Assembly: GCA_002331335.1 (NCBI GenBank)
Contig: DCZO01000014.1
Coordinates: 277,088-341,087, forward strand
Direction of reading: 5' to 3'
Length of the DNA: 64,000 nt
Source of the DNA: Nitrospira sp. UBA2082
GTDB lineage: Bacteria > Nitrospirota > Nitrospiria > Nitrospirales > Nitrospiraceae
The notes under the pieces were generated by a model. That model saw nothing but the letters and a program-made list of their open reading frames with translations, ran no database searches and was not told where the DNA came from. How positions within the stretch are numbered: the first letter of the stretch is position 1; every line of letters begins with the position of its first letter. A program made the position numbers and the translations under genes. Shown here one piece after another: positions 9,159-32,429 of the stretch.

Positions 9159-10577
9159 TTATCGCTCCGCTTCGGTGAGATCCGCTTCGTCTTCGATCTC
9201 TTCCAATTCCGGATCGAGCTTCCCTTTGGTCATCGACGGATGGAGCCCGTATTTCCTGAGCATCTTGTAGAAGTCCGCCCGATACCGTCCGGCAAATTGA
9301 GCCGCGCGGGAAATATTGCCACCGGTCAGCTGGAGCACGTTCTTCAAATACGTCCGCTCAAAGTCTTCCTTGGCTTCGGTGAGCGGCTTGAGCGAGGGCT
9401 CGTGTGAGACGCCGACCGCCGGCAACAGATCCGGTGTCAGCATGTCTTGGCGAGACATGACCACGGCTTTCTCGACGGCGTTTTCCAACTCCCGTACATT
9501 GCCGGGCCACGGGTTCGCCATCAGTCGATTCAGCGCTGCCGGCGTGAATCCCTTCACTTCTTTGTTCGCCCGCTTGACGGCGAGTTTGAGGAAGTGCTGC
9601 GCCAGCAACGGAATGTCGTCGCGGCGGTCGCGCAACGGCGGTATGAACAAGGGCACGACCGAGATCCGGTAGTACAAATCGTTGCGGAACGTGCCTTGTT
9701 TGACCGCTTCGCCAAGATCTTTGTTCGTGGCGGCAATGATGCGAACGTCCACCTTGGACGTGATCTCCGAACCCACCTCACGCACTTCCCGTTCCTGCAC
9801 CGCCCGCAGCAACTTGACTTGCATCGCCAGCGGCATTTCGCCGATCTCGTCTAAAAAGAGGGTGCCCCCGTTGGCCATCTGAAAGAGCCCGCGCTTGGCA
9901 CCGAGCGCGCTGGTGAAGGCGCCTTTCACATGTCCGAACAGCTCGCTTTCAAACAGCGTTTCCGGAATCGCGGCGCAGTTGAGCGCGACGAACGGCCCCT
10001 TGTTCCGCCGGCTGTTCGCATGAATGACACGGGCCATGACTTCCTTCCCGGTCCCGGTCTCGCCGAAGAGCAAAATGGTCGCATCCGAATCGGACACTTG
10101 CGCAATCTGCTGAAACAGCCGCTGCATCGCCGGACTTCGCGCCACGACGTTTTCGAGCCCGTAGAGCTCCTTGACCAGTGATTTGAGACGCTGAATTTCC
10201 CGGCTCATCCGTTGTTGCGCGAGTGCCTTTTCGATCGTGGCCTTGAGTTCTTTGTCATCGAATGGCTTCGTCAAATAGCCGAACGCGCCGCGCTGCATCG
10301 CCTCAACGGCGTTGGGGATGCTGCCGTGGGCGGTGAGAATGATGATCGGCAGACCGGGAAGGATGCGCAACAGTTCCTCGGTCACGTCCAGTCCGTCCTC
10401 GCCGCGCAGGCGCAGATCGGTAATCGCCAAGTCGAACATCCTCTTCTTGGCTGCTCCGACGGCTTCCTGCCCGGTGGTGCATGGAGTCACGGCAAATCCC
10501 ATCGCGGAGAGCCGCATCTTCAACAGGTGCAGCAGCCCCTCATCATCATCGACAACCAGAATGTGTTCCTGTTCCAT
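9159..10577 (-). CDS. Sigma-54-dependent response regulator (GlrR/QseF-like)
   Basis: Receiver domain, GETGTGKE, GAFTSA, WPGNVRELEN; C-terminal NISRAAQFAGRYRADFYKML resembles the GlrR HTH. Confidence 0.88.
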   Translation of the reverse strand: MEQEHILVVDDDEGLLHLLKMRLSAMGFAVTPCTTGQEAVGAAKKRMFDLAITDLRLRGEDGLDVTEELLRILPGLPIIILTAHGSIPNAVEAMQRGAFGYLTKPFDDKELKATIEKALAQQRMSREIQRLKSLVKELYGLENVVARSPAMQRLFQQIAQVSDSDATILLFGETGTGKEVMARVIHANSRRNKGPFVALNCAAIPETLFESELFGHVKGAFTSALGAKRGLFQMANGGTLFLDEIGEMPLAMQVKLLRAVQEREVREVGSEITSKVDVRIIAATNKDLGEAVKQGTFRNDLYYRISVVPLFIPPLRDRRDDIPLLAQHFLKLAVKRANKEVKGFTPAALNRLMANPWPGNVRELENAVEKAVVMSRQDMLTPDLLPAVGVSHEPSLKPLTEAKEDFERTYLKNVLQLTGGNISRAAQFAGRYRADFYKMLRKYGLHPSMTKGKLDPELEEIEDEADLTEAER

Positions 10578-10597
10578 GGTATTCCTTCCACATCGCG

Positions 10598-11362
10598 TTA
10601 CGGCATCGGGTCCGGTACTGGGATCGGCGCCACCGTCGACGGAGGACGAATCGGGCGCACTTTTTCTCTCATTTCCTGATCGATTCGTTTCAACGCTTCC
10701 AGTTGTGTCGACAGTTCTTCAATCTTGCGATCCCGCTCTGCCAGCTGTTTTTGCAAGCTCTGCACGGAGGGCGGATCAGATCGTCCCTGTCCCTTCGAGA
10801 GCAACTCGATCTTGCGGTCCCGCTCAGCGAGTTCGCGCTGCAGTGCCTCAACCGTCTGAAAATCTCCCTCCTTCGTTGAGCGTATCTGCTGAAGGAGTAC
10901 TTCCCTATCAAGCAAATCCCGCACCAGCCGGTCAGCAGCCTGGCCCAACGAGGCATTGGCCCTCCAAATGGCAGGCCAACCCACAATGGCATCGATCCAC
11001 GAAATCGTGCTGGGAGACGGATGCATGTGTAGCAGGTCCATCCACGCCTTGCTTGAGGCGGCTAACTGGCCTTTTGGAGCAATCGCCAGGACCTTCCCGA
11101 AATATTTCTCCGCGACTTCGCGGCTTTCGTACAGGCCGATCAAGGCTCTCGTGAAGTACGCATGATCGCAGGAGCTGGTTTCGGCACACTTGGCCACCAC
11201 GCCCTCTTGCTTCCTTGCAAGCGCTTGAAATGACTTCGATTCGGCCGGATCCGTCACGAAATAGGGCCGATCGAGCGCACTGGGTGACGTCCAGGAGGCG
11301 CACCCCCCTAGAAGCAAGACCAGTGAGGAGCACATGAGGGCTCGTGTGAAGAATCGTTTCAT
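10598..11362 (-). CDS. Lipoprotein with coiled coil (QseG-like position)
   Basis: Lipobox LLLGG|C, helical core, C-terminal coiled coil; lies between kinase and regulator. Confidence 0.7.
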   Translation of the reverse strand: MKRFFTRALMCSSLVLLLGGCASWTSPSALDRPYFVTDPAESKSFQALARKQEGVVAKCAETSSCDHAYFTRALIGLYESREVAEKYFGKVLAIAPKGQLAASSKAWMDLLHMHPSPSTISWIDAIVGWPAIWRANASLGQAADRLVRDLLDREVLLQQIRSTKEGDFQTVEALQRELAERDRKIELLSKGQGRSDPPSVQSLQKQLAERDRKIEELSTQLEALKRIDQEMREKVRPIRPPSTVAPIPVPDPMP

Positions 11363-12831
11363 TCGCCCTTTACCTTTCCCTGTTTTGCCAACCGTAGGAC
11401 AAACCGTACAGTCGTTCCCTTCTTGATTTCACTTTCAATCCAAATTCTTCCCTCGTGCGCTTCCACGACCTTCTTGGCCAGCGCAAGCCCCAGCCCGCTG
11501 CCGGCGGAGGAATTTTTCGCCTTCGTGCGGCCCTGATAGAACCGTTCGAAAATATGGGGAAGATCTTCAGCCGCGATTCCTGGACCCGAATCGGACACTG
11601 AAACTTCAAGCACGCCGGCATGAGGATCCGGCTTCATCTGCAGTTTGACGATACTCCCTTCCGGACCGAACTTCAGCGCATTCGATAGCAGATTATCGAG
11701 AACCTGTTCAACTCGCGGGGCGTCGGCCTTGACCCATGCCCGCTCGCCAATACTCTCAAACACGAGCTGGATATGCTTGGAATCGGCCAGCAACCGGACT
11801 TTGTTGATGGAGATGCTCGCAACCCGCTTGAGGTCGACCGGAACGATTCGATACTCCATCATCCCGGCTTCCATTTTCGACAGATCGAGAATTGTCGAGA
11901 TCAGATGAATCAGCCGGCGGCTGCTGTCGGCCATGATCCGAAGGGTCGTCCGCTGTTCTTGGGTGAGGGGACCCGGGATCTCATCGAGCAACAGATGGGT
12001 GCCTTCCTGAATCGAGGCCATCGGCGTGCGTAACTCATGCGAGACATGGGCGAGGAATTCCGCCTTCATGTCATCGAGTTCTTGCAGCTTCCCGCCCATC
12101 CAATTCACCGTATCGACGAGGTCCGTCAGTTCAGCCGGGGCCGTAATTTGGAGCGGCTGACCGAACTTCCCTTGGCCGATTTCTTTGATGTGCCCTTGCA
12201 GCTGACGCAAGGGTCGCAAGATCGTGTAACTGGCGACGCCGGCCAGTCCCAGGGCAAAGACCAATGCCACCAGCACCAGCTGCTGTGTGACCGCTTGGGC
12301 TCGAACCGCGCTGGCCCGCGACTCGCTCACGCCCACGCTGACCCGCGCTTCATGCAAGTCGACGTACCCCTGAATCGAAGCCGACATCCGATCCATGATG
12401 GCATCACGACGGCTCTCGTATCCGGGCGCCGGAATCTTGCCGGCCGACGGCTCCACACCGTCATGGAACAACACCAATCGTTCCTGGAGCAACCGACCCG
12501 TCTCATACAGCAACTGTTGCCCATCCGGCGCACTTTCCCGGCTCAGGACCTGCTGCAGGCTGCGCTGGAATTCTTCCACCTCTTCGTTGAAGTTCGCCAG
12601 AAACGCCGCGTCTCTTGTCGCCAAATATTTCTTCTCACTGTTCAATTGGACATAGAGTGAGCCCAGCAACCGTTTGGCCGACTCGACCGCCGGATAGTGG
12701 TACGAGGCCATTTCCGTACTCATGGCCGTCAACTGCTTGAGCTGGAACAGCGCGTACAGATTGACTCCTCCCATGACCGCGATGATCACCAAGGAGGTCA
12801 GCAACAGGCGCCAAAAGATCGACAGCCGCAC
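11359..12831 (-). CDS. Membrane sensor histidine kinase with HAMP (GlrK/QseE-like)
   Basis: Two TM helices, HAMP, H-box VSHELRTPM, NLLSNALKF, DSGPGI, GSGLGL. Confidence 0.9.
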   Translation of the reverse strand: MRLSIFWRLLLTSLVIIAVMGGVNLYALFQLKQLTAMSTEMASYHYPAVESAKRLLGSLYVQLNSEKKYLATRDAAFLANFNEEVEEFQRSLQQVLSRESAPDGQQLLYETGRLLQERLVLFHDGVEPSAGKIPAPGYESRRDAIMDRMSASIQGYVDLHEARVSVGVSESRASAVRAQAVTQQLVLVALVFALGLAGVASYTILRPLRQLQGHIKEIGQGKFGQPLQITAPAELTDLVDTVNWMGGKLQELDDMKAEFLAHVSHELRTPMASIQEGTHLLLDEIPGPLTQEQRTTLRIMADSSRRLIHLISTILDLSKMEAGMMEYRIVPVDLKRVASISINKVRLLADSKHIQLVFESIGERAWVKADAPRVEQVLDNLLSNALKFGPEGSIVKLQMKPDPHAGVLEVSVSDSGPGIAAEDLPHIFERFYQGRTKAKNSSAGSGLGLALAKKVVEAHEGRIWIESEIKKGTTVRFVLRLAKQGKVKGE

Positions 12832-13987: not shown

Positions 13988-16585
13988 ATGGACATGAATC
14001 GAATGACGGTCAAGTTGCAAGAGGCCTTGCAGACAGCTGCGGGGCATGCTCAACGGCGCAGCCATCAAGGCGTCGATGTGGAACATCTCCTGCTCGCACT
14101 GCTCGATCAGGAAGGGGGAATAACTCCTGCGCTGTTGGAACGGACCGGGGTGACGCTGCCGGCCGTCCGTCAGACTGTCGAGCAGGCATTGACCAAGATC
14201 CCTCAAGTTCAGGGCGCCGGCGCGGCTCCCGGACAGTTACACATGGCCACGCGGCTCGCCCACATCCTCACCAAAGCGGAAGACGAGCAACAGTCCCTCA
14301 AGGACGATTATCTGAGCGTCGAGCATGTGCTGCTGGCCATGGCGCAAGCAGACGGGCCGTTGAAGAAGCTCGGCCTCACGCGCGACCGGCTGCTCAACGG
14401 CCTTCAGCAGGTACGCGGCAGCCAGCGGGTCACCAGCCAGGATCCGGAAGGCACCTATCAATCGCTGGAAAAGTACGGACGGGAGCTGACGCTGCTGGCC
14501 GGCAAAGGCAAGCTCGATCCCGTGATCGGACGGGACGACGAAATCCGCCGCGTCATTCAAATCTTATCCCGGCGGACGAAAAATAATCCGGTCCTGATCG
14601 GTGAGCCCGGCGTCGGCAAGACGGCCATCGTTGAAGGGCTGGCCATCCGCATCGTGAAGGGCGATGTCCCCGAGGGCTTGAAGCAGAAAAAGCTGTTCGC
14701 GCTGGACATGGGCTCGCTTGTCGCCGGTGCCAAGTTCCGGGGGGAATTCGAAGAGCGGCTCAAGGCGGTGCTCAAAGAAATCCAATCGTCCCAGGGACAA
14801 ATTCTCCTGTTCATCGATGAACTGCACACCGTCGTCGGAGCCGGCGCCGCGGAAGGCGCGATGGACGCGGCCAACCTGTTGAAGCCGCTGTTAGCGCGGG
14901 GGGAACTGCATCTCATCGGCGCGACGACACTCGATGAGTATCGCAAGCACATTGAGAAAGACGCGGCGCTGGAACGGCGGTTCCAGACCGTCTTCGTCGA
15001 CCAGCCGTCGGTGGAGAACACCGTGTCCATCCTGCGCGGACTCAAGGAACGGTATGAGGTCCACCATGGGGTCCGGATCAAGGACAGCGCCCTGGTTGCG
15101 GCCGCGAAGCTGTCGCACCGGTACATCTCGGACCGGTTTCTGCCGGACAAGGCCATCGACTTAGTCGATGAAGCGGCGGCCCGCCTGCGAACCGAAATCG
15201 ACAGTTTACCGGCCGAATTGGACGAGGTCTCGCGCAAGGTCCTCCAATTGGAAATCGAGCGGGAAGCATTGAAGAAAGAAAAAGACCCGGCGAGCGCGGC
15301 CCGCTTGGCGACGCTCGAATCGGAGCTGGACGACAAACAACGCGAGCTCCAGACCTTGAAAACCCAGTGGGAATCGGAAAAGGCCTCCGTCTCGCGCCTG
15401 CGTAAGACACGCGAAGCGATCGAAGAAGTCAAACGCCATATTGAACAGGCGGAACGCGCCTATGATCTGAACCGCGTGGCCGAACTCCGCTACGGAGAGT
15501 TGCCTCGTTTGGAACGGGAGCTCGGCATCGAACAGCAACAGCTGGGGAAAAAGCAGCACGAAGCCAAGCTCCTGAAAGAAGAAGTCGATGAGGACGAAAT
15601 CGCGGCGGTCGTCAGCCGCTGGACCGGTATCCCCGTCTCCCGCCTGCTCGAAGGCGAAACCGACAAGCTGTTGAAGCTGGAGGACCTGCTGCACCAGCGG
15701 GTGGTTGGGCAGGAGGAAGGGGTTCGCGCCGTGGCCGACGCCGTGCTCCGCGCGCGCTCCGGCATCAAAGATCCGAACCGCCCGATCGGCTCATTCCTGT
15801 TCCTCGGCCCCACCGGTGTCGGCAAAACGGAGCTGGCTCGTGCGTTGGCTGCCATTCTGTTCGACGACGAAGGGAACCTTGTCCGGATCGACATGTCGGA
15901 ATATATGGAAAAGCACACCGTCGCGCGCTTGATCGGCGCCCCGCCCGGCTATGTCGGCTATGAAGAAGGCGGCCAGTTGACGGAAGCGGTCAGGCGACGC
16001 CCGTTCTCCGTCATCCTGTTCGATGAGATCGAAAAGGCGCACCACGACGTGTTCAATGTCCTATTGCAAGTCCTGGACGACGGGCGGCTGACCGATTCCC
16101 AAGGCCGTACGGTCGATTTCAAGAACACGGTCCTGATCATGACCTCCAACATCGGCAGTCCTCAAATCCTTGAAGCACAGCAGCAGGGCGCCCGCTACGA
16201 ACAGATGCGGACCGTCGTCATGGATGAGCTGCGGCAGCATTTCCGTCCGGAGTTTTTGAACCGGGTGGATGAAGTGGTCGTGTTCCATCCGCTGGGCACG
16301 GAACATCTCGTGCAAATCGTGGAGATTCAGCTGCAGCGGCTGCGCCAGCGGCTCGAAGAGCGGCGCATCACCCTCGCGCTCAGTCCGGCGGCGCTCCGGC
16401 AACTGGGCGAGCGGGGCTATGACCCGGTCTACGGAGCGAGGCCGCTCAAGCGGCTCATCCAGCAGGAACTGGAAACGCCGATCGCGCGCTTGTTGGTCAA
16501 AGGAGAATTGCGGGACGGCGATACGGCAGCGGTCGATGTCAAAGACGGCGGAGTCGTCGTCGTACCGACCGTGACCAAGGAGTGA
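13988..16585 (+). CDS. clpB: ATP-dependent chaperone ClpB
   Basis: Clp-N repeats, two AAA+ modules ([16 protein letters not shown]), coiled-coil M domain, GARPLKR; 865 aa. Confidence 0.98.
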
Positions 16586-16607
16586 ACACTCTCTAGCCGA
16601 TCGAGAC
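16442..16607 (+). repeat. Direct repeat copy 1 (clpB 3' end plus 22 bp)
   Basis: Aligns without gaps to 20901-21066; 14 mismatches in 166 bp by manual count. Confidence 0.95.
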
Positions 16608-16851
16608 AGGGCCGACTGTTGGCTCCTACACTCTTTGAGGCTGGGTGTGATGACGGTTGATGAAAACCCTGGGCGTCAGATTCCCAATGGCATTATGCCT
16701 CCACTCTTCATAATACCCTCGTCACCAGACTTCAATCGCAAGCCTCGCTTCTGACCGTTATTAAGTATTAAGACGATACATCAAACTAGGCATCGCCAGC
16801 TGACCACTGCCAGCGAAACTAAACAATTACCACACCAGCACCCCCTTCATC

Positions 16852-19800
16852 TTAGGTGCAGTGCCAGATAATTCGTACCACCTGATGTCCAGCGGCACCA
16901 TACTGGATTACGGTCAGTCGAGCCCGTGCTCTGCAAGCGCGATGCACAAGTTCTTCCATGGCCTTTTCCCTCGTGTGAAAGGTATGCCTAGTCGCGCCAC
17001 ACGCATCGAGCACAAAGCCTTGGAAATCGCCGAAGCAGTCATACAGAATCTCCGCGACCTTGCCCGTGACTCGTGCGCCTGTTTCATCAGAAACTTCCGT
17101 GCCGGACCAGTGTCCACCCGTCCCCTCCGGAGACGCCACTATGCGGTCTGGATCACCTCCGAACGCCCGCACACGCGCAGCGATCTCGTCCAGGTACCGT
17201 CCGAATACCGGCACCCATCGGTTACCTGGCGCGAGAATGCTTGCCCGATGGCGCAGGAGCGCGAGCCTGTGTTCTTCTGCAGCCAATAGGAGTGGACCGC
17301 GACTGACTGGTATCGTAAATTGAAACGCGCCCATAACTTTCCTATGGGTGCCGGAAATTTGATGAAGGGAGATCTTAAAGAGCTGTCCTTCTCGAACAGT
17401 ATCCGGCAATTGAACGCTGAGTAAGCCTGGAATATTTACAACCCGATTGCCAGGAATCGGCAAAAGCGTTACATCTCCGACGCGGCATTCTACCGTATGA
17501 GAATCGACTAACCGACACATACCTGCACTCGGCTTCAATGAAGCCACTTCGAGCAACTCCCTTACATCGACATCAGGCCAATAGAACCTCGCCACACTTT
17601 CTCGCGGAAGATTATTCCACCGTACAAGAAGCTGATCGTGCATCAGTGGTTTTGACACACCAGCAGCACCTGCTTTTGCTTCCGCGACATGATGGCCATG
17701 TGCCAATTCAGGGACAATCACGGTTGGCTGTGCTGACAACGCCGGAAGCGCTTCGGGCAACTTCGGCCACACAGGCGATGGGCGCAACTCAAAGGTATGC
17801 TGAACGAGATGGCCATCACCTCCACCAGGGTTATCGGATTTGACGATGACAAGATTGCGCTGTGCCAAATTGTCGTTGTCGCCAGGCGTCGCTCCCGGCG
17901 GTATCGGATCATCCGCGAAGTTCACCTCAGCCACCAGACACTGATGTTGATCGATGATATGCTCCTGAATACTCAAAAGTGGGCCGGTGCCTCCGGTACC
18001 GTTGGCGTTCGGCTCACGCCGGTAAATATCAGTGCTTGGCTGATTGATGTCCAACCAACATCCGAAATACTCGACCTCGTCACTACCCGTCCCATTTAGC
18101 GGTCGCACGTTTTGGGGATCATCCTGTAATTCGAGATTCCCCACACGCGCCGCAGCAAAGAACGGAATAGAGACAACCTCATTTCCCGCCAAACCAATCA
18201 GCGGACGCACGGTCGACCCGGTCGTATAGACTGGATACGTCGACGGCCGAAATTCCATCGAGGCAGCCGCTGTCGTAAACATTCGAAAAAACACCCGAAC
18301 ATGTTCGGCGTTCTGCCCCACCGGCGCCCGATACCGTACGCGAGCGAAAGCGTAGTTATAGATTTTCTTGCCACTGAGGACTGGGGCAAGCTCAAGCGGG
18401 CTTTCGGCCTGGTCGGTCTTAAGGTCGCGCTCGAACGGATGTGTGATTCCTTCCGGGCGAGCACGCAACTCCGCAAGTACCCCATCGAGAAACCTGTACG
18501 GGGCGTTGACATCAGCCTCTTGCGTAACGCTTGCGAATGTTTCGTCTTGAGCAATTTGCAGCACGCGCACGTCGAGGCTGAGCCAGTGAGGGTTTCCGTC
18601 GACCATATAGGGATTTTTCCGCTTGAACAAGGTTACGTTGCCTCGTGTTTCATGTCCTCCCCTCTGAACAATAATGGAAACAGAACGTATTTCGGCAGAA
18701 CCCAAGGCGCTGAACGCAGAAACGTTGGTAAAGCGGATCGAGTAGACAAGCACAATCTTCTGCCCAATTCCAGGCGATGCACTACCGCTCTCAAACAACG
18801 TACGTTCCAACCGAGCACTCATGCCGGGAACGGTACCTCCCCCATTCCCCCACTGAAACAAGATAGATGGTCCACCCGGCAACCCAGCATCGCCAGACAC
18901 AAACCCGTCCATAACGACATAGAACGCGTCGTAAAACGTCGCCGGGTTGCCCATTGTACTGACTTCCATCTCAGAGAAATGACTGCGGTCGGTGATGACG
19001 TACATTGCACCACCGACTCGGATGAACCGCGCATACTGGCAAGGACGGCCACCTTCGTCGATTAAGAACAACATGTAGTGTCCAGGAGGGGCAACGGCTC
19101 CATGGGGCGGCGCTGTCAGTGTGAGTGCTGTCCCTTCACGCCCTTTGATCGCGAGCTCGATGCACCGTTGGTCCAGGTTAATGGAGTGAGTCATTGACCC
19201 ACACCGGATTAAGGCTGCGCGACGGATACTCGCCGCCTCTGGGCTCCGCACAGTGAACAGTTGCCCATACGCCACATTCGATGGACAATCGGATATCCTT
19301 GGTCGTGTGCCTGCTGGATAAGGCGGCGTAAAGATCTCGGCGTTCAGCACACGGCGGTCCACTCCTCCTTCGGTCCTAGCGGAATTCACGTTCGAACCCG
19401 CTGTCCACACACGTCCATCAGGAAGCAGCAACATGGTGGAATGATAGTTGCGCACTTGCTGAGCCGGTTCTTCGATTGTCTGCCAGCTATCGGTCACGGG
19501 GTCGTATAGTTCCGGTGCTTGTACCCCTGTGGCGTCGTTCGCCCTATCCTCTGCTCCTCCAACCACCACGACCTTACCAGTTGGGAGCAAGACAGCCCCT
19601 GAATTGTTCCGAACCTTTCCTGCTGCCGATCCAACTCGCGTTCCAGCGTTCTGCCATGATGGACTGGTAGCCCCCAAATCAAGCTTCATCGGTTGGACAG
19701 CCCCGGTCACCAAAATTCGAGCACGATAGTTGTCTTCAGGTGACAAGGGTAGGATGACTGAAGAAATGGCCCCGCCGGCAGGCCCAGCGGTCACAACCGT

Positions 19801-20481
19801 CGCGGCTCCTGTCCAGGAGTCGTATCGCATGGTTCCACCGCCAGAATCCACTACGAGAACAAGCCCATCGGCTGGAATCACGTGCATCCGTGCATATCCA
19901 CCCACTCCTGGAAGCGCTGGCATCCGCGTCCACGAATTGGTCGCTGGCAAGTACCGCTCTGGCGTGTCATTCTCATGACGTGTATCGTCACCCGCAGGAT
20001 GTCCGCCCACGGCCAGCAATTGTCCATTCGGTAGAGTCAAGATGGTTGGATACCATCGGCCTCCGCCAGTATCGTTCATCTCCTGACCGGGCTCTGGACC
20101 AAATCGAGCAATTTCAGAAAAACCGGGCGCGAACGGGTTGTAGACCCAACAGCGCCGTTCGGCTGTGAAGTGTCCAAGCATGCCATGTTCGCCTGGAGCC
20201 TCGGCCTCATATGTCGCTGTTCCGCCCCCGATCAGCAGTCGTCCATCGGCCATGAAGGCATGGCCACAACAAAACAGATCGGCTGGTGGAGATGACACGT
20301 ATGTGATGGCTTCTGTTCGGCAATTGAAACGGCGAGACTTATCAATGCTATTCATCAGTAATGCTGGTGGGCTGTGCTCGTCGCCGCCGAAATAGATTAC
20401 CTCGCCATCACCATTTGGAGTTGGCACAACAGCTGCGTGAATGGCACAGATTTCCGAATTAATAAGCGGTCCCCACGGCAT
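16852..20481 (-). CDS. 1209-aa copper radical oxidase (galactose/glyoxal oxidase-like kelch + DUF1929) fused to a ~720-aa uncharacterised C-terminal module
   Basis: DLFCCGH, GRWYPT, RNYHS...LLPDGRV, GSMTHS.N.DQR, APPGHYMLFL correspond to the Cys, Tyr, Tyr-His and His copper/cofactor positions of galactose oxidase; no signal peptide. Confidence 0.88.
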   Translation of the reverse strand: MPWGPLINSEICAIHAAVVPTPNGDGEVIYFGGDEHSPPALLMNSIDKSRRFNCRTEAITYVSSPPADLFCCGHAFMADGRLLIGGGTATYEAEAPGEHGMLGHFTAERRCWVYNPFAPGFSEIARFGPEPGQEMNDTGGGRWYPTILTLPNGQLLAVGGHPAGDDTRHENDTPERYLPATNSWTRMPALPGVGGYARMHVIPADGLVLVVDSGGGTMRYDSWTGAATVVTAGPAGGAISSVILPLSPEDNYRARILVTGAVQPMKLDLGATSPSWQNAGTRVGSAAGKVRNNSGAVLLPTGKVVVVGGAEDRANDATGVQAPELYDPVTDSWQTIEEPAQQVRNYHSTMLLLPDGRVWTAGSNVNSARTEGGVDRRVLNAEIFTPPYPAGTRPRISDCPSNVAYGQLFTVRSPEAASIRRAALIRCGSMTHSINLDQRCIELAIKGREGTALTLTAPPHGAVAPPGHYMLFLIDEGGRPCQYARFIRVGGAMYVITDRSHFSEMEVSTMGNPATFYDAFYVVMDGFVSGDAGLPGGPSILFQWGNGGGTVPGMSARLERTLFESGSASPGIGQKIVLVYSIRFTNVSAFSALGSAEIRSVSIIVQRGGHETRGNVTLFKRKNPYMVDGNPHWLSLDVRVLQIAQDETFASVTQEADVNAPYRFLDGVLAELRARPEGITHPFERDLKTDQAESPLELAPVLSGKKIYNYAFARVRYRAPVGQNAEHVRVFFRMFTTAAASMEFRPSTYPVYTTGSTVRPLIGLAGNEVVSIPFFAAARVGNLELQDDPQNVRPLNGTGSDEVEYFGCWLDINQPSTDIYRREPNANGTGGTGPLLSIQEHIIDQHQCLVAEVNFADDPIPPGATPGDNDNLAQRNLVIVKSDNPGGGDGHLVQHTFELRPSPVWPKLPEALPALSAQPTVIVPELAHGHHVAEAKAGAAGVSKPLMHDQLLVRWNNLPRESVARFYWPDVDVRELLEVASLKPSAGMCRLVDSHTVECRVGDVTLLPIPGNRVVNIPGLLSVQLPDTVREGQLFKISLHQISGTHRKVMGAFQFTIPVSRGPLLLAAEEHRLALLRHRASILAPGNRWVPVFGRYLDEIAARVRAFGGDPDRIVASPEGTGGHWSGTEVSDETGARVTGKVAEILYDCFGDFQGFVLDACGATRHTFHTREKAMEELVHRACRARARLTVIQYGAAGHQVVRIIWHCT

Positions 20482-20900
20482 TCGTCAGCCCTCCTCTGAG
20501 GTTATCTCCTATCAGCTTCCACAGGGGAGACATGGTTGTCTTGCCCCTCGATTGATTGAACTCTAAAAGTACGTCTAGCAATCGTTATGCCGCCCTGACA
20601 CCACCCATCTCATCGGAAGCACTCGCACCTATTTTTCTCAAAATCGATCTTTGATGAGCTTTAGTCTCTGCATCGCAGATACAATCATGAGCAAGGTATC
20701 CAATTGCTTGAACACACATGAGTGCTTCCTCGATCTTCGCGTCGTTGCTATCTCAGGAATGCTTTTTCAATCTTGAAACAGGTTCTTTTGTGAAGATCAA
20801 TCGATTAAGAAGCGATGCGAGTATATCCGTTAGGATACTGAGCGAACAAGATACAATGTCTTCGAAACTAGCAGTCCCGCATCCTGCCTACAGAACCTCA

Positions 20901-21066
20901 CCGCTCAAGCGGTTCATCCAGCAGGAATTGGAAACGTCGATCGCGCACTTGTTGGTCAAAGGAGAATTTCGGGATGGAGATACGGCAGCGGTCGATGTCA
21001 AAGACGGCGGAGTCGTCGTCGTACCGACCGTGACGGCGAAGTGAAGGCCCTCTAGCCGATCGAGAC
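20901..21066 (+). pseudogene. Direct repeat copy 2: decayed clpB 3' fragment
   Basis: PLKRFIQQELETSIAHLLVKGEFRDGD...TAK* versus [27 protein letters not shown]...TKE* in clpB. Confidence 0.93.
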
Positions 21067-21489
21067 GGCGCCGCCTTTCGCGTCGATGGTCTGGCCGGCC
21101 TTCGTCTGCTTCTCGATCTTCCATTGTTTGGCCGACACTTCGAAGAGATGGCCTTTCATCGTGTAAAACTCCGCGTGTGAGCACGACACAAGGCCGGGGG
21201 CTTTCACATCAAGTTGGAGCAACACCCTCCCCGAGTCCGTTTCCTTCAGGGCCACACGCTCGACGGTTTTGTTCACATCATAGGCGCGCCGCTCGTTGAA
21301 CATCAGCGTGCTGTCCACCATCTTGGCCAGCATCCGACCGTCCGCATCGAACAAGGCAAAGTTTACCAACAGCGCACCTGTTGAAGCATGCCGGGCCACC
21401 TGGATTTGCGGTACCCCTTCGATTTCGATCGTGCCGTCTGAATTGCGGTAGAGATTGGAGCCGACTTCGATATCCATGATCGGGGTCAA
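21052..21489 (-). CDS. Hypothetical beta-rich protein
   Basis: 145-aa ORF; its stop lies inside repeat copy 2. Confidence 0.75.
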   Translation of the reverse strand: MTPIMDIEVGSNLYRNSDGTIEIEGVPQIQVARHASTGALLVNFALFDADGRMLAKMVDSTLMFNERRAYDVNKTVERVALKETDSGRVLLQLDVKAPGLVSCSHAEFYTMKGHLFEVSAKQWKIEKQTKAGQTIDAKGGAVSIG

Positions 21490-27974: not shown

Positions 27975-28224
27975 AGGGCTGACCGGACATGTCATATCGA
28001 CCTTATCGATAGATCCAAGCGATCCTAACCATAAGAGGAATAGAGTAATCCTACGCACCGGTGTTACCGTTCCGACCACATGAGTGAGGAAGGTAAGTGG
28101 GTTTCAGACACAATCCGCTCGACACACTCACGTTGCGGGGTGACTAAGGAGCATGTCGTGCGATTGCAATCCATGCAAAGATTCCTGACCCTTTCACCTT
28201 CAGTACGTTCGGCCGTGAAGGCTC

Positions 28225-28644
28225 ATGACTTACCTTAAGTTGCTGGGTATATCCTTTGCCATTTTTACTTCCTTCATCTCGGCGTCACACGCAGGCAATG
28301 TAGAGCCAACAAGAAACCCAGAAGAGATTATGCTCTCCCAAGAAGAAGTAAAGTTTGTTCGGTGGTTGATTGCGACAGATGACATGATTAAGACAGCCAG
28401 CCAAGAAGGACAATTACTATATTGGCTCAATAAGGCCATTTCCATTGTGGCGCCAGGACCAATTAAGCTTATACAGCAGTGGAACATGGGTGCCCTTGAG
28501 GGCTGGAGAAAGGCAAACAAGAAACTTGTGACGCTTAAGAGGCAGGTGCATTGCGAGAGAATTCATCTCCGGATTTCTGAGGAAACAGAGAATAGTCCAT
28601 TTTTTGAAAAACTATATAAAGCTAGAGGGTGCGAAGAGAATTAG
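28225..28644 (+). CDS. Secreted hypothetical protein
   Basis: Signal peptide ending ASHA; two C-terminal Cys; AT-richer than the core genes. Confidence 0.65.
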   Translation: MTYLKLLGISFAIFTSFISASHAGNVEPTRNPEEIMLSQEEVKFVRWLIATDDMIKTASQEGQLLYWLNKAISIVAPGPIKLIQQWNMGALEGWRKANKKLVTLKRQVHCERIHLRISEETENSPFFEKLYKARGCEEN

Positions 28645-28865
28645 CGTTTTTAATTCCGTGCTCACAATTTTCCCCTACTGGTGCCTCCTTGGCGAGAAGC
28701 TTGCAGGATCATCACTCTTTCTTTGGAGGGCCATCGCAACATCGCGCATTTCCGATCGAGTCCACCGAGGCAGATCAGAACCAACCAATGCAATTTATCC
28801 AAGTAGTTCAGTCCTCGATCGCGGCTCAATATATCCGTCACAAATCCACAAAGGAGGATCACTTC

Positions 28866-29234
28866 ATGATTACGCTTCTCAGTTTATCTCGTCTACTTCT
28901 AATGACCATCGCAATCGTTTTTGCTACGGTTCCAAGTGGGTTTGCCTTCGACCTGAAGAAGGTAGATTCGTCATCTCGTAATGGAAATGTGGATTCAGAC
29001 TTTGAGTTCACGGTAAACAAGGCGGAAGCGAACACCCTTGGATCGACTGAAATGAAAGCCACGCTTCTAGTTTTCTGCACTCAAGCTCTTGGGCCATTGG
29101 GGCCTGTGGCTGCTAAGTTTGTCGGCGAACATTTAGATCAAATCAAGCAGACAGCCACCGAAAATGGCGCCTACATCAAGATGACTATCCGTAATGGAAC
29201 TGGTCTCCATATCTGGGAGGTGTACCCTCTCTAG
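28866..29234 (+). CDS. Secreted hypothetical protein
   Basis: RBS AAAGGAGG before ATG 28866; signal peptide ending GFA. Confidence 0.7.
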   Translation: MITLLSLSRLLLMTIAIVFATVPSGFAFDLKKVDSSSRNGNVDSDFEFTVNKAEANTLGSTEMKATLLVFCTQALGPLGPVAAKFVGEHLDQIKQTATENGAYIKMTIRNGTGLHIWEVYPL

Positions 29235-29331
29235 ATGACAATGAAGAGCCCTGCTCTTACAGGTGAGACCTCCTTGAGCGAGAGGCATTTGCAAGCACGC
29301 ACCCCGAGACGAAGGATTGGAAAAAGATAAT

Positions 29332-30087
29332 CTACCTTCTTCGTTGCTTGTATTTTCTTTGCCGATCGCGAGAGATTATGGAGAGTGAGCGTGTCGCTGA
29401 TAAGGGTGAAGCACCATGAGAATATCGTAGCCTGAAATGCGGTATGGAGCATTCGCTGACCGTGATGGTCTCAGCGAAAACCTCGCCCGCAAGATTGAGG
29501 GATTTGGAAAAGGGTCGAGTGGACGTATTATAGAAGTTTCTAATAATAAAACCGATGAAATCATATGGGGTTAAAGGCGCACTCACTGGTATTCGACAAT
29601 CCTTATATTGTCCGAGCGTGAGATGGCTCTTCGGATGATCAACCTCTACATGCACCGATGGAGAACTATTGAAATCGAAGCGAATTGGGAATGGCACCAC
29701 AGGACGGGATAGCATGTCTGCAAAGATGTCGTCATTCAGATAAGATTCCTGGTCTGTCTGGAAGCTTTCCAAGTCTGGGGAGGGGAAAAATGCCAGTCTA
29801 TGTGACCACAGGTGGTCACTCTGGAATGTGTATAACATCTGAATCAATGACCCATCGATCATTTTCAGATGATATGCACCAGCCTTTTCAAGAGTTCTGT
29901 ATATATGGTTATATGAAACGTTCTTAAGCGCTACAGCCAGACTGTTCGCATCCTTGACCGTGACTTGAACTCCGCCTCCCTGAAGTGGTTGCACCGTCGG
30001 GAAGTTTTGGGAGTCGCAGAGGCTAAGAGAGACAACCTGGGTAATTATGCTTCTGGCTTGGCGTAAGATTTCCCTCTGAGTTATCAC
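29332..30087 (-). CDS. DUF2290 domain protein
   Basis: SHRLAFFPSP, PIRFDF, HPKSHLTLGQYKDCRIPVSAPLTPYDF..FI.RNFY; GTG start overlaps the helicase stop (GTGA). Confidence 0.85.
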   Translation of the reverse strand: MITQREILRQARSIITQVVSLSLCDSQNFPTVQPLQGGGVQVTVKDANSLAVALKNVSYNHIYRTLEKAGAYHLKMIDGSLIQMLYTFQSDHLWSHRLAFFPSPDLESFQTDQESYLNDDIFADMLSRPVVPFPIRFDFNSSPSVHVEVDHPKSHLTLGQYKDCRIPVSAPLTPYDFIGFIIRNFYNTSTRPFSKSLNLAGEVFAETITVSECSIPHFRLRYSHGASPLSATRSLSIISRDRQRKYKQRRR

Positions 30088-32219
30088 TTCTTTCCGTGTC
30101 CAAGCAGCCTTCTAAATTTAGCAATCACTTCGTCTGGATAATCATCAAGAACTGTTTCTCCGCTCTCAAGTGATTCCAGGATATCTTCAAGGCTTAACTG
30201 CTTCTGGCGAATTCTTTTCTTCTCTTCTGCGGTCATATCTCGGTTGATTACTCGCAGCTGTGCGCGCTCTTGAGCCGTTGGGTACTTAAACCGAAGTTGA
30301 TATTGGGATTTTCTCACTCTTTCAAACTCTTTCTCGAGCTTCTCCATATCCTCGCCATACCCAATGACTCTTACCCAGGCTTTACTCCGCGTAATTGCAG
30401 TAAACAATCTGTTTCGCACACGAGCCAAATCTCCACGCCAAGCAGCATAGCAATCTTGTGCATTAATCACGTAGACCATCGCAGCTTCATTTCCCTTTGC
30501 TCGAAAAATCCCTGTAAAGGTGACCTTATCTCCCTCAAAGAACACATCCGGAGTTGTTGAAACTCCAGCAAGGCTCGAGTTTATTCCCTTTTCCAATAGC
30601 CTCTTTCTTGCCTGTGACACTGCGCTTCGTGTAGTAATGGGATCTGGATTGATAACTATGATGTCGCCCGGCTGGAGTTCATCTTTCTGAAGATTGTGCA
30701 CGATCTCACTTACTAGCCATTCTATCTGCGCATCATCGGTGGCGAAACTCTTAAACCTGATAAGATCCTCCAGCGGTGAGTGAAGCTCTAGGAACTCGGG
30801 GCTTGTATCTCTGGACCTTGAAAGCGTGACCTGTTTACCTTCCTCAAATTGTCCATTAACAATGCCATAACCTATATCGAGCCAAAGTTCCTTGTGGTCA
30901 AACATTTGAATTAGCCCTTCCGGCTCGCGGTAGATTCCAAAGCCTAAGGCATGGGCTGTTGTTAGGATAGGGCGCGAGTTTCGGTAACATTTCTCCAGAA
31001 TTATGTCCTGTCTGGGTTTCCCAGCTATCGCCGGAGAAAAAACTACGCGAGGCTGGCCATCTCCACTCTTGCCAAAGATTTCTTCAGGTGGGGGAAGGGA
31101 CTTGTTCGTCAGGCTCTGCAGTTCGTCGTAGGCGTACACAAGGCGCTTTGGCTCTCGAAGGTATTCGTAACAGAGAAGGAGAAAGTTGGGAGAAAAGTCT
31201 TGAGCCTCATCAACTAAGATCGCATCGTATGTGGGTTTAAACTGTTTCGTTTCCTGCAAGGCTTTTTCGCATACCCCTTCGAATTCCCGTCCTGACCCAA
31301 AGGTGGATCGCGCGGCTCTATAGTCCAAGTATTCAATGCCGTGGTCTTTGCAGAAGCTATAGTAAATTCCAGATTTATCTTCACCTGGAGAGCCCCAGGC
31401 ATTAATTATGTGAATGTTATCCCAGTCAGGTTCTTCATTCGTCTGCTCAATGACAAAGGTGTTGATAAGACTTTCAAACTGGCCCTTTAGGGATCGTGTA
31501 TGGAATGTTACCGCTATTTTCCAATCCTGATTTTGCGCATGAAGGTATGCAACCTTAAGCGCGAGTACGATTGTTTTTCCAGATCCAGCCAATCCACGGA
31601 TTCTCTGCACGCCTTCGAATGTTTCTATTACTGCGGCGCTCTGAATGTTGTCGAGGTTTGCAATTGAATCCTCGAGAGCTCTTAATTTGCTCCCTTTCGA
31701 CAGAGGATCTTTTGTCTCCCGCTTTTTCTTCCCTTTCTTGATGGTTGAGATTGACTGGATTGCAGCGACTGCAGCAGGAAAGTACCGTTTCTCCTCTACT
31801 GTTAGCCCGGCAAGGAAGCCTCCGATGGTTTTCAGGTTGCAGATCGGATGCCCAGACGTTGTTATGGCTGAAGTGTTAGTAATTGCTGGCGCAAAGGAAA
31901 CACAGGATGGAAGGATTGCCAGGGTACGCCCTTTAACGAGGGCTTTGTGTTGCAGGAGCTTAGCTTGTAGCTTTGTGAAGCTCTCGTCTTGTGCAAGAGC
32001 AAATTCACTTGGATCTTTACCTTCCACAATATGGAAAATAACGATACCTGAGTTTGGACTAAGCAATAGGGCATCTATCCGAAAAGGACCTTCTGGCGTT
32101 CCTATTATTGGATAGCCAATGTAAAGCGTGCCCTCCATGTCAGGTTGACTGGCAAAGAAGTTTGCTAGCTGCTCACTGGCTACGGGTTTTCTAGTACTGC
32201 CCCAAATTGTCTTAACCAT
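30084..32219 (-). CDS. Superfamily-1 (UvrD-like) helicase partner of DUF2290
   Basis: GLAGSGKT, ILVDEAQDF, YRNSRPI, TGIFRAKGNE, RNRLFTAITRSK; nuclease-like N-terminus; probable start MVKTIWG. Confidence 0.9.
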   Translation of the reverse strand: MVKTIWGSTRKPVASEQLANFFASQPDMEGTLYIGYPIIGTPEGPFRIDALLLSPNSGIVIFHIVEGKDPSEFALAQDESFTKLQAKLLQHKALVKGRTLAILPSCVSFAPAITNTSAITTSGHPICNLKTIGGFLAGLTVEEKRYFPAAVAAIQSISTIKKGKKKRETKDPLSKGSKLRALEDSIANLDNIQSAAVIETFEGVQRIRGLAGSGKTIVLALKVAYLHAQNQDWKIAVTFHTRSLKGQFESLINTFVIEQTNEEPDWDNIHIINAWGSPGEDKSGIYYSFCKDHGIEYLDYRAARSTFGSGREFEGVCEKALQETKQFKPTYDAILVDEAQDFSPNFLLLCYEYLREPKRLVYAYDELQSLTNKSLPPPEEIFGKSGDGQPRVVFSPAIAGKPRQDIILEKCYRNSRPILTTAHALGFGIYREPEGLIQMFDHKELWLDIGYGIVNGQFEEGKQVTLSRSRDTSPEFLELHSPLEDLIRFKSFATDDAQIEWLVSEIVHNLQKDELQPGDIIVINPDPITTRSAVSQARKRLLEKGINSSLAGVSTTPDVFFEGDKVTFTGIFRAKGNEAAMVYVINAQDCYAAWRGDLARVRNRLFTAITRSKAWVRVIGYGEDMEKLEKEFERVRKSQYQLRFKYPTAQERAQLRVINRDMTAEEKKRIRQKQLSLEDILESLESGETVLDDYPDEVIAKFRRLLGHGKK

Positions 32220-32429
32220 CGCGCCCTTCACTGAAAGGAGAATTGCTTCAGAAGTATGAACCAGAATGGCTAAGTCAGGCAATGCCCCCCTTCTTCTCGA
32301 AGCAGACGACAACTCTTGGACTGGCTACGATCAAAAGGGAACTGAACGTGTGTATGACCTTCCCCCCGAAAACTAGACCATTGGCTTGGAAGTTCATCTG
32401 TGCTGAGATGGGCCCCACAGGAGGGGGCC

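Follow-up and report, generated by a model that had tools for sequence, protein, structure and literature searches.

A leaderless copper radical oxidase of Nitrospira sp. UBA2082 joined to a C-terminal beta-sandwich cassette with exchangeable N-terminal enzymes

Why does a copper oxidase lack an export signal, and what is the large C-terminal region that it carries? Both questions are raised by a single gene in a stretch of 64,000 nucleotides from Nitrospira sp. UBA2082 (assembly GCA_002331335.1, contig DCZO01000014.1, positions 277,088 to 341,087, forward strand), which is referred to as the window and is numbered from its first letter. The gene codes for a copper radical oxidase (CRO) head that is followed by a module of 720 residues. 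This module is a discrete cassette, and the enzyme at its N-terminal end is exchangeable. Related cassettes occur behind at least 12 identifiable families of enzymes in many bacterial phyla. We tentatively propose that the cassette serves its various enzymes as a shared scaffold for docking or targeting, and weigh this against four other explanations.

The oxidase head and its missing leader

The open reading frame (ORF) is on the minus strand and starts with ATG. It is the longest possible reading, with no in-frame start codon further upstream. The identical protein is found in three independent assemblies; the window belongs to a sediment-associated metagenome-assembled genome (MAG). The gene, its head and the predicted cofactor residues are located as follows, conservation being counted over 142 CRO heads that are joined to the same C-terminal module.

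16852-20481, minus strand: whole gene, leaderless fusion of CRO and module, 1209 aa (stop codon at 16852-16854)
19015-20481, minus strand: head, aa 1-489, minimal CRO with a 7-bladed kelch propeller and an E-set domain
19036-19305, minus strand: galactose oxidase (GO)-like E-set (DUF1929), aa 393-482 (Pfam PF09118, E 7e-22)
20269-20271, minus strand: Cys71, predicted thioether partner in the Tyr-Cys cofactor, opposite the Cys in DLFCTGH of GlxA (4UNM); Cys in 141 of the 142 heads
20050-20055, minus strand: Trp143-Tyr144, predicted stacking Trp and cross-linked equatorial Tyr ligand; 142 of 142
19441-19446, minus strand: Tyr346-His347, predicted axial Tyr and first His ligand of copper; 142 of 142
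19186-19188, minus strand: His432, predicted second His ligand of copper; 142 of 142

The head has the CRO fold, a kelch propeller (Pfam Kelch_1, Kelch_2 and Kelch_6) followed by the E-set. Its best matches among PDB sequences are GlxA from Streptomyces lividans (4UNM, E 1e-34), an AA5_2 alcohol oxidase (5C86, 4e-29) and Fusarium galactose oxidase (1GOF, 8e-27), all of which share the propeller and the C-terminal E-set. In a HMMER alignment to GlxA, the motifs DLFCCGH, RWYPT, RNYHS and SMTHS are placed opposite DLFCTGH, RWYPT, RNYHS and ASTHV. In GlxA, these motifs contribute the cofactor Cys that is linked to Tyr, the Trp-Tyr and Tyr-His pairs and the final His. Thus every residue of the set known from GlxA, AA5_2 enzymes and galactose oxidase is aligned: the Cys, both Tyr, both His and the Trp directly before the cross-linked Tyr. 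Judged by this alignment, the head is a copper radical oxidase with the full cofactor set and is probably catalytically competent, being of the AA5/GlxA type. Because the cofactor residues are retained in 141 to 142 of the 142 heads, the head appears to be under selection as a working oxidase.

An assignment as GlxA ortholog was rejected. The corresponding equivalog model (NCBIfam NF052501) yields only 186 bits, distributed over three partial stretches, compared to a cut-off of 800. The alignment leaves GlxA residues ~113-254 without a counterpart in the window head. The parts without counterpart presumably are the N-terminal membrane anchor of GlxA and its inserted domain 2.

The N-terminus of the window protein (MPWGPLINSEICAIH) enters the propeller directly, and most of the CRO-headed relatives also begin with MPW. 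A signal peptide was detected neither in the 1209-aa protein nor in ~120 homologs, nor in five RefSeq-annotated members, which include the copy from the Gram-positive Bacillus cereus. Characterised CROs, in contrast, are secreted or membrane-anchored. The window protein also lacks a CBM32 domain, and it carries the extra 720-aa C-terminal module, which is absent from all characterised CROs. The head is an architecturally unusual new member of a known enzyme family.

A preliminary description of this gene, made from the sequence alone, had reported the 1209-aa ORF, quoted 14 motifs, attributed the cofactor set of galactose oxidase to the head and noted the lack of a signal peptide. All of this was borne out, with five cofactor residues and the stacking Trp aligned to GlxA and with copper ligands that also align by sequence with galactose oxidase. 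The motifs occur at the expected positions, both in the head (DLFCCGH 68-74, RWYPT 142-146, RNYHS 344-348, SMTHS 429-433, PPGHYMLFL 465-473) and in the module (NPYMVDG 623-629, WLSLDVRV 633-640, YNYAFARVRYR 708-718, VRVFFRMF 728-735, FGCWLDINQ 806-814, HQCLVAE 846-852, LAQRNL 872-877, RWVPVFGRYL 1088-1097, YDCFGDFQGF 1147-1156).

A cassette with exchangeable heads

A search with the module alone retrieved 494 proteins. Among the best 120, the heads are GO-like in 84 cases, oxidases of the LodA/GoxA type, which use a cysteine tryptophylquinone (CTQ) cofactor, in 18, and tyrosinases in 10. From 80 genome loci and an exhaustive search with hidden Markov models (HMMs), further heads emerged: M14 carboxypeptidase (named "MpaA" by the Joint Genome Institute, JGI), M35 aspzincin, pro-kumamolisin/S53, multicopper oxidase, Gln_deamidase_2, GH123, BNR/sialidase-like propellers, a ConA-like domain and at least eight clusters of heads without a Pfam match. 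When the search was seeded with an S53 fusion from Ralstonia, 2,562 proteins were obtained, and the best 120 had BNR_2 (21), M35 (20), LodA (14), M14 (10), S53 (4) and glutaminase (3) heads, with no Pfam match for 48. There are thus at least 12 identifiable head families, in addition to many heads that Pfam does not recognise. Four of the latter were compared to PDB sequences, also without a match.

The module begins at the position equivalent to residue ~490-495 of the window protein, whatever the type of head. A conserved short beta-strand leads straight into DRSTFSxxEV at this junction, with no low-complexity linker. In the phylogeny of the modules, head types are interleaved. Modules that differ by only 35-38% are attached to unrelated heads (tyrosinase versus LodA, M14 versus an unassigned head, S53 versus an unassigned head), while the mean divergence among CRO-linked modules is 55%. 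The clearest case is found on a Myxococcota MAG contig (DASYRF010000389.1, locus L094, 6129-13309), where two members are arranged in tandem, with a 91-aa ORF between them. Their modules are 81% identical (aa 441-1175 versus aa 365-1102), and their heads are unrelated, one having a BNR/Asp-box motif and the other being an M14 peptidase. The interleaved phylogeny and the nearly identical tandem modules with unrelated heads imply that the cassette recombines at its N-terminal junction, and that it has done so repeatedly and recently. At the same locus, a separate gene for an eCIS_core (DUF4157)-Aspzincin_M35 protein is located 4 kb downstream, and a MopE-type copper-binding protein is encoded upstream.

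A candidate for a stand-alone module (P0024, locus L085, 3305-7142) was dismissed, as it is the 3' part of a frameshifted GO-module fusion; other short matches are from short contigs. An unrelated tyrosinase fragment is found upstream on the metagenome contig of P0024.

Neither Pfam (whole protein at E<=1, five sub-segments at E<=10) nor NCBIfam has a match to residues 490-1209. PADLOC has none at E<=1 for the protein or the module, and PDB sequences have none, either by single sequence or with a head-free profile. In particular, no named domain (carbohydrate-binding module, Big, FN3, PKD, thioester domain or the like) could be assigned to this region, and a literature search returned no description of the module. 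The preliminary description had already stated that these ~720 residues fit no named family and had described them as fused to unrelated N-terminal enzymes in other bacteria, suggesting an undescribed interchangeable module. The swapping of heads and the lack of any match to a known family support this, and none of the outcomes that this description had named as contrary was observed: the region matches no characterised domain, it is not confined to the oxidase head, and the copper ligands align, as judged by sequence. The H2O2 generation that it proposed for this head does not extend to the family: oxidase activity or H2O2 as a common denominator is ruled out by the M14, M35 and S53 peptidase, protein glutaminase, GH123 and sialidase-like heads.

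The second commonest partner among the best 120 proteins is the LodA/GoxA type. LodA of Marinomonas and AlpP of Pseudoalteromonas produce H2O2 and are leaderless, as is the window protein; antimicrobial or biofilm cell-death roles are known for them. A LodB-like flavoprotein gene adjoins the genes with LodA-type heads and has been kept there. In contrast to the fusions, characterised LodA/GoxA proteins are devoid of the module, and the window head is a copper enzyme rather than a CTQ enzyme. A survey (PMC4417212) describes LodA/GoxA oxidases as having antimicrobial or biofilm cell-death roles; its lone use of "C-terminal" concerns LodB, and the terms "fused", "longer", "extension" and "additional domain" are absent from it.

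Predicted fold and conserved face of the cassette

AlphaFold2 modelled the 720-aa module with confidence, using 47 homologs (mean predicted local distance difference test, pLDDT, 84; predicted template modelling score, pTM, 0.78). A core of ~630 aa, composed of three beta-sandwich domains and a helical hairpin, is followed by a variable tail of ~90 aa. The predicted parts are listed in the order of the protein.

18634-19014, minus strand: domain D1, aa 490-616, beta-sandwich; starts with the conserved junction strand and DRSHFSEMEV, with no linker after the head
17752-18633, minus strand: domain D2, aa 617-910, elaborated beta-sandwich with nearly all invariant residues and no significant structural neighbour
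17926-17946, minus strand: HQCLVAE strand in D2 with His846, Cys848 and Glu852 (module H357, C359, E363), candidate functional site
17653-17751, minus strand: low-confidence loop, aa 911-943, probably disordered (pLDDT below 50)
17302-17652, minus strand: domain D3, aa 944-1060, beta-sandwich
17164-17298, minus strand: helical hairpin, aa 1062-1106, with conserved NRWxPVFxRYL...GGDPD; ends the ~630-aa core
16861-17073, minus strand: variable tail, aa 1137-1207, small alpha/beta domain; Cys 1149, 1161, 1183 and 1208 co-occur

The tail is missing or replaced in ~40% of the members, and its four Cys are gained and lost together. Extended tails of other members that were run against Pfam contain no domain.

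When the 720-aa model was compared to PDB and BFVD with Foldseek, the matches were all strings of Ig-like domains, with TM-scores of ~0.1. These were integrin legs, ClfB/SdrG, antigen I/II, alpha2-macroglobulin/C3, transglutaminase barrels and phage tail proteins. The Ig-like stalks and adhesins (the MSCRAMMs ClfB/SdrG, C123 of antigen I/II, integrin legs, MG domains of alpha2-macroglobulin) are chains of beta-sandwiches as well and are the only structural matches to the whole module. MSCRAMM, antigen I/II, integrin and alpha2-macroglobulin proteins are exported. The module differs from them in having no sequence similarity, no cell-wall anchor signal and no signal peptide, and D2 differs as an elaborated sandwich of ~290 aa with helical insertions (two helices in the model). 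According to the model, the cassette is built from beta-sandwiches, and no characterised domain can be assigned to it.

D2 was also modelled alone (pLDDT 85, pTM 0.85), and nothing in PDB was matched at E<=1e-3. The best weak matches are domain III of hemocyanin, prophenoloxidase and hexamerin (E 2e-3 to 3e-2, query TM-score, TMq, <= 0.25, non-significant), followed by arrestin-fold lobes, the integrin thigh domain and the ester-bond adhesin repeat 8DJ2. Like the module, domain III is a beta-sandwich that can follow a copper domain, in its case a type-3 one. This leads to a latency or maturation domain as an explanation, in which the module would shield or mature the head until it is removed, as is the case for the C-terminal beta-sandwich of pro-tyrosinases and hemocyanins. 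The rigid junction without a linker would fit, as would a tyrosinase-headed gene that has no caddie-protein gene in the one context examined. We nevertheless consider this very unlikely. One constant module is hardly suited to occlude the active sites of a dozen structurally unrelated enzymes, many of them non-copper heads, and it is D1 rather than D2 that adjoins the head. The S53 heads retain a pro-kumamolisin activation domain of their own at the N-terminus, and the M35 heads have ~200 aa ahead of their Pfam match. The fold matches themselves are weak (E >= 2e-3, TM <= 0.25).

Most of the conserved positions of the module are in D2. Across 47 to 280 sequences, its invariant residues include Arg779, Phe806-Gly807, Asp811, Asn813, His846, Cys848, Glu852, Gln874-Arg875-Asn876, Asn884-Pro885 and Thr896. 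Cys848 is kept in 280 of 280 modules, whereas Cys808, the only other conserved Cys of D2, is Ala or Val in 13%, so that Cys848 cannot simply be one half of a structural disulfide with Cys808. As His846, Cys848 and Glu852 are at positions i, i+2 and i+6 of one predicted beta-strand, they would point to the same face of the sheet. In the model, these three residues plausibly form a ligand, metal or reactive site.

The module itself might be catalytic or might bind a cofactor, which we regard as quite unlikely. His846, Cys848 and Glu852 would then be the active site of an autoprocessing or ligase-type enzyme, a metal site, or a thioester or ester-bond centre together with Gln874 or Thr896, and the Cys4 tail would bind zinc or an Fe-S cluster. 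An invariant Cys whose sole conserved potential partner is dispensable is consistent with this, as are the shared strand side of the three residues, the location of the invariant Asp811, Asn813, Gln874, Arg875, Asn876 and Thr896 on other D2 strands and the co-occurrence of the four Cys in the tail. Among the residues that an intramolecular thioester, ester or isopeptide bond of the adhesin type might employ, Cys848, Gln874, Thr896, His846 and Glu852 are invariant, and the ester-bond repeat 8DJ2 is among the weak fold matches of D2. There is, however, no family-level match to such adhesins, neither the fold nor the sequence significantly resembles an enzyme or a thioester or ester-bond domain, and a ligand-binding site would yield the same pattern of conservation.

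Distribution, gene neighbourhoods and possible roles

An exhaustive profile search returned 1,939 representative clusters at 50% identity (E<=1e-3), of which 755 are retained at E<=1e-30. At 90% identity, the family has thousands of members. In species-representative genomes, 359 loci were found. They are distributed over Myxococcota, Acidobacteriota, Gemmatimonadota, Actinomycetota, Cyanobacteriota, Chloroflexota, Bacteroidota, Planctomycetota, Nitrospirota and Deinococcota, and over many Pseudomonadota, including Nitrosovibrio, Duganella, Halomonas, Ruegeria and Roseobacter. One protein with a CRO head (P0017) is from a MAG that NCBI labels as a Nitrososphaeraceae archaeon; it is either genuinely archaeal or a binning artefact. 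Copies are carried on plasmids in Bacillus cereus and B. wiedmannii (GO head), in Paraburkholderia sprentiae, and in Ralstonia solanacearum and R. syzygii, where an S53-headed copy is on a 174-kb plasmid and one with an unassigned head is on the megaplasmid. No relative was found on viral contigs (IMG/VR, by pattern search and tblastn), which leaves a phage origin unsupported.

The gene is autonomous. When ORFs within +/-8 kb of the 80 genome loci were clustered, the only conserved neighbour was the LodB-type flavoprotein that follows LodA heads. The 121 nearest-neighbour ORFs in these genomes were assigned to 122 Pfam families, almost all of them singletons, and no partner, immunity, secretion or defence family recurs among them. 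A conserved operon partner or secretion system was therefore discarded; MacB/HlyD-type genes are near the module genes in 4-6 loci only.

In the window, the gene has the signature of a single-gene insertion. It is the sole gene in a 4,459-bp segment that is bracketed by direct repeats of 194 nt:

16424-16617, plus strand: repeat copy 1, the 3' end of an intact clpB gene and ~30 nt beyond
20883-21076, plus strand: repeat copy 2, an orphaned 3' end of clpB, 87-90% identical to copy 1

The ORF at copy 2 (20718-21044) represents a dead C-terminal tail of ClpB. G+C content (GC) is 0.54-0.56 in the segment and ~0.60 in its flanks. It is the combination of clpB-derived repeats and lowered GC that points to an insertion. 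The ORF list for the segment, in which small ORFs were left unscanned, has no entry of the size of an integrase or transposase. Scans for promoters and terminators around the gene gave results at chance level.

These contexts bear on an explanation that we consider rather unlikely, an intracellular conflict system. The module would sense a phage protein or a stress signal and unleash a harmful cytoplasmic head, such as a generator of H2O2 or quinones, a protease or a deamidase, resulting in abortive infection or programmed cell death. This would be similar to single-protein defences that combine an N-terminal effector with a large C-terminal sensor. The inspected members all lack a leader, the gene is a solitary, self-sufficient unit, and effector-like heads are swapped on a constant module. 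Leaderless homologs of LodA and AlpP are reported to cause H2O2-mediated cell death in biofilms. The distribution is patchy and mobile, as illustrated by the lower-GC islet in the window, the plasmids, and the Paraburkholderia copy, which adjoins three tyrosine recombinases; the Ralstonia plasmid copy adjoins IS21 and H-NS/HU genes. On plasmid NZ_CP117422.1 of B. cereus 2-6A (locus L086, 44094-61989), the GO-headed gene is found between the genes for a 1158-aa SIR2 protein and an 884-aa P-loop NTPase, beside a type I-C CRISPR-Cas system. The NTPase neighbour is retained on the B. wiedmannii plasmid, where genes for a type VII secretion system (T7SS) and EndoU toxins follow. The two plasmids share a replicon type and are thus not independent evidence. 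In a groundwater relative (P0004, 60% identical; loci L001/L002, 11839-13438), several toxin-antitoxin pairs precede the gene. The gene for P0004 is directly followed by an MsrQ/MsrP-like pair (Ni_hydr_CYTB and Oxidored_molyb), which we take to be a system that repairs oxidised periplasmic methionines; this arrangement beside an H2O2 generator was seen once.

Several results argue against a conflict system. PADLOC contains no model of a known or candidate defence protein that matches the window protein or its module. Only ~4-5 of the 121 nearest neighbours match a defence HMM, with no family recurring; this count, which indicates no enrichment in defence islands, stands without a matched control set. 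Isolated suggestive cases are the B. cereus plasmid and, in the window, a Helicase-DUF2290 pair 9 kb away. GH123, sialidase-like, ConA-like, laccase and pro-sedolisin heads would be odd effectors in the cytoplasm, the loading of CRO, tyrosinase and multicopper oxidase heads with copper in that compartment is doubtful, and neither an NTPase nor another known switch domain is present. The defence function considered in the preliminary description hence found no backing, be it in PADLOC, in recurrent defence, immunity or secretion neighbours or on viral contigs. Antagonism or defence remains a minority reading, for which the B. cereus plasmid island, the tandem pair near the eCIS_core-M35 gene, the plasmids and the islet in the window are suggestive contexts.

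The logic of a constant module with exchangeable enzymes, recombining exactly at the domain junction, is known from polymorphic toxins and from effectors with an eCIS_core domain (DUF4157), and the M35 domain is both a head in the module family and, at the Myxococcota locus, part of an eCIS_core protein. The family differs from these systems in that the constant part is C-terminal and comprises ~700 aa, in that no immunity gene adjoins and no secretion or injection apparatus is linked at the 80 loci, and in that most heads are oxidases rather than classical toxins. A delivery platform for antagonism or predation might still be envisaged, which we likewise judge to be improbable. The module would be the binding or translocation part of an effector of the AB type, or of one released by lysis or in vesicles, and would bring varied enzymatic warheads to the cell envelope of competitors or prey. 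Many of the heads attack proteins, peptides of the peptidoglycan type (M14, "MpaA") or glycans. The tandem pair has diversified its heads 4 kb from a toxin-type gene, and the copy in B. wiedmannii is near T7SS/EndoU toxin genes. Many carriers are from lytic or predatory lineages (Myxococcales, Herpetosiphonaceae, Lysobacteraceae, Saprospiraceae, Aquimarina), and the absence of a leader is shared with other lysis-released toxins. On the other hand, no immunity, secretion or lysis gene is conserved beside the family, and neither a membrane-inserting nor a helical translocation domain is predicted. Carriers are monoderm, diderm and possibly archaeal, so that no single delivery machinery fits. Tandem diversification was seen at one locus, and at none of the 80 genome loci.

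In Duganella and other Oxalobacteraceae (L038, L054, L057 and L058), M35-headed members are 2-5 kb from a gene for a protein similar to TssM/IcmF of the type VI secretion system (T6SS) and a gene for an M15-like peptidase, while another Oxalobacteraceae locus (L048) shares with them only TonB-dependent-receptor and CheX-like neighbours. These five loci are syntenic and closely related, and the TssM-like link was seen nowhere else. Upstream of the Ralstonia copy there is no hrp box of the type III secretion system (T3SS); a single match elsewhere in that locus is at chance level.

Two other regions of the window were noted. About 9 kb from the oxidase fusion (29332-32312, minus strand), a 742-aa helicase and a 251-aa DUF2290 protein are encoded, which match the PADLOC models "Helicase" (1089 bits) and "DUF2290" (300 bits). 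GC in this stretch (28000-32000) is 0.47, compared to ~0.59. These matches make the pair a candidate anti-phage system of two genes that sits on an acquired island. Upstream of clpB and on the opposite strand (9159-12831, minus strand) are a CHASE3/HAMP histidine kinase (11359-12831), a 254-aa ORF without a Pfam match (10598-11362) and a sigma-54-dependent response regulator (9159-10577). This set looks ordinary and has no evident link to the oxidase fusion.

A proposed docking or targeting scaffold

Three facts have to be reconciled: the heads are of extracellular types, export signals are absent, and no partner is conserved across carriers with very different envelopes. We favour, with a probability of about 40%, the reading that enzymes which modify macromolecules share the cassette as a docking or targeting scaffold and act outside the cell or at its surface. 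In the window protein, the head would use O2 to oxidise an alcohol or aldehyde group, forming H2O2. It would be rigidly fused to a self-contained cassette of three beta-sandwich domains, a helical hairpin and a small Cys-rich tail, which may direct any enzyme plugged onto it to one shared partner, surface or assembly. Contact or ligand binding would take place at the polar face of D2 that is invariant (His846/Cys848/Glu852, Asp811/Asn813, Gln874/Arg875/Asn876). The protein would be released without an export signal, by lysis, in vesicles or by another route, and would then function extracellularly or on the cell surface.

Almost every identifiable head is from a family whose usual substrates are proteins, amino-acid side chains or glycans outside the cytoplasm, and several heads need copper. 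For this reason, and because copper enzymes are hard to metallate in the cytoplasm, we consider an action outside the cell or at its surface the most likely one. The predicted all-beta-sandwich build resembles Ig-like domains or adhesin stalks, and such folds are typical of modules for binding and scaffolding. We regard the scaffold reading as the most economical; it agrees with the fold class and with a cassette that is promiscuous and autonomous.

Four points weigh against it. The ligand or partner to which the module would dock is itself postulated. None of the some 350 members inspected has a signal peptide, so that extracellular action requires an unproven route of release. An invariant, unpaired Cys is unusual in a purely structural extracellular scaffold and would rather fit a cytoplasmic, catalytic or metal-binding role. 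Finally, the rigid junction differs from the flexible linkers that are usual for appended binding modules.

It is tempting to speculate, with a substantial though lesser chance of being right, that the ~630-aa core of the module is a self-sufficient platform for sensing, docking or delivery, that the family constitutes a new class of leaderless single-gene effectors with swapped heads in thousands of bacterial lineages, and that the window copy employs its H2O2-generating oxidase in conflicts with microbes or phages. Whatever its role, the module is among the larger protein cassettes without a model or structure in Pfam 2025, NCBIfam 2026, PADLOC or PDB. Its partners include enzymes of biotechnological and ecological importance (CROs, tyrosinases, laccases, LodA-type oxidases, sedolisins, Lys-specific peptidases and carboxypeptidases, protein glutaminases, glycosidases), all of which occur here in an unexpected leaderless form. 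This raises the questions of where and how copper oxidases without an export signal are metallated and used, and of which common target or partner justifies a single scaffold for a dozen unrelated enzymes. The module could also serve as a natural plug-and-play scaffold in enzyme engineering. Any answer would annotate thousands of "hypothetical" genes in genomes from soil, sediment and plant-associated bacteria and from the Bacillus cereus group.

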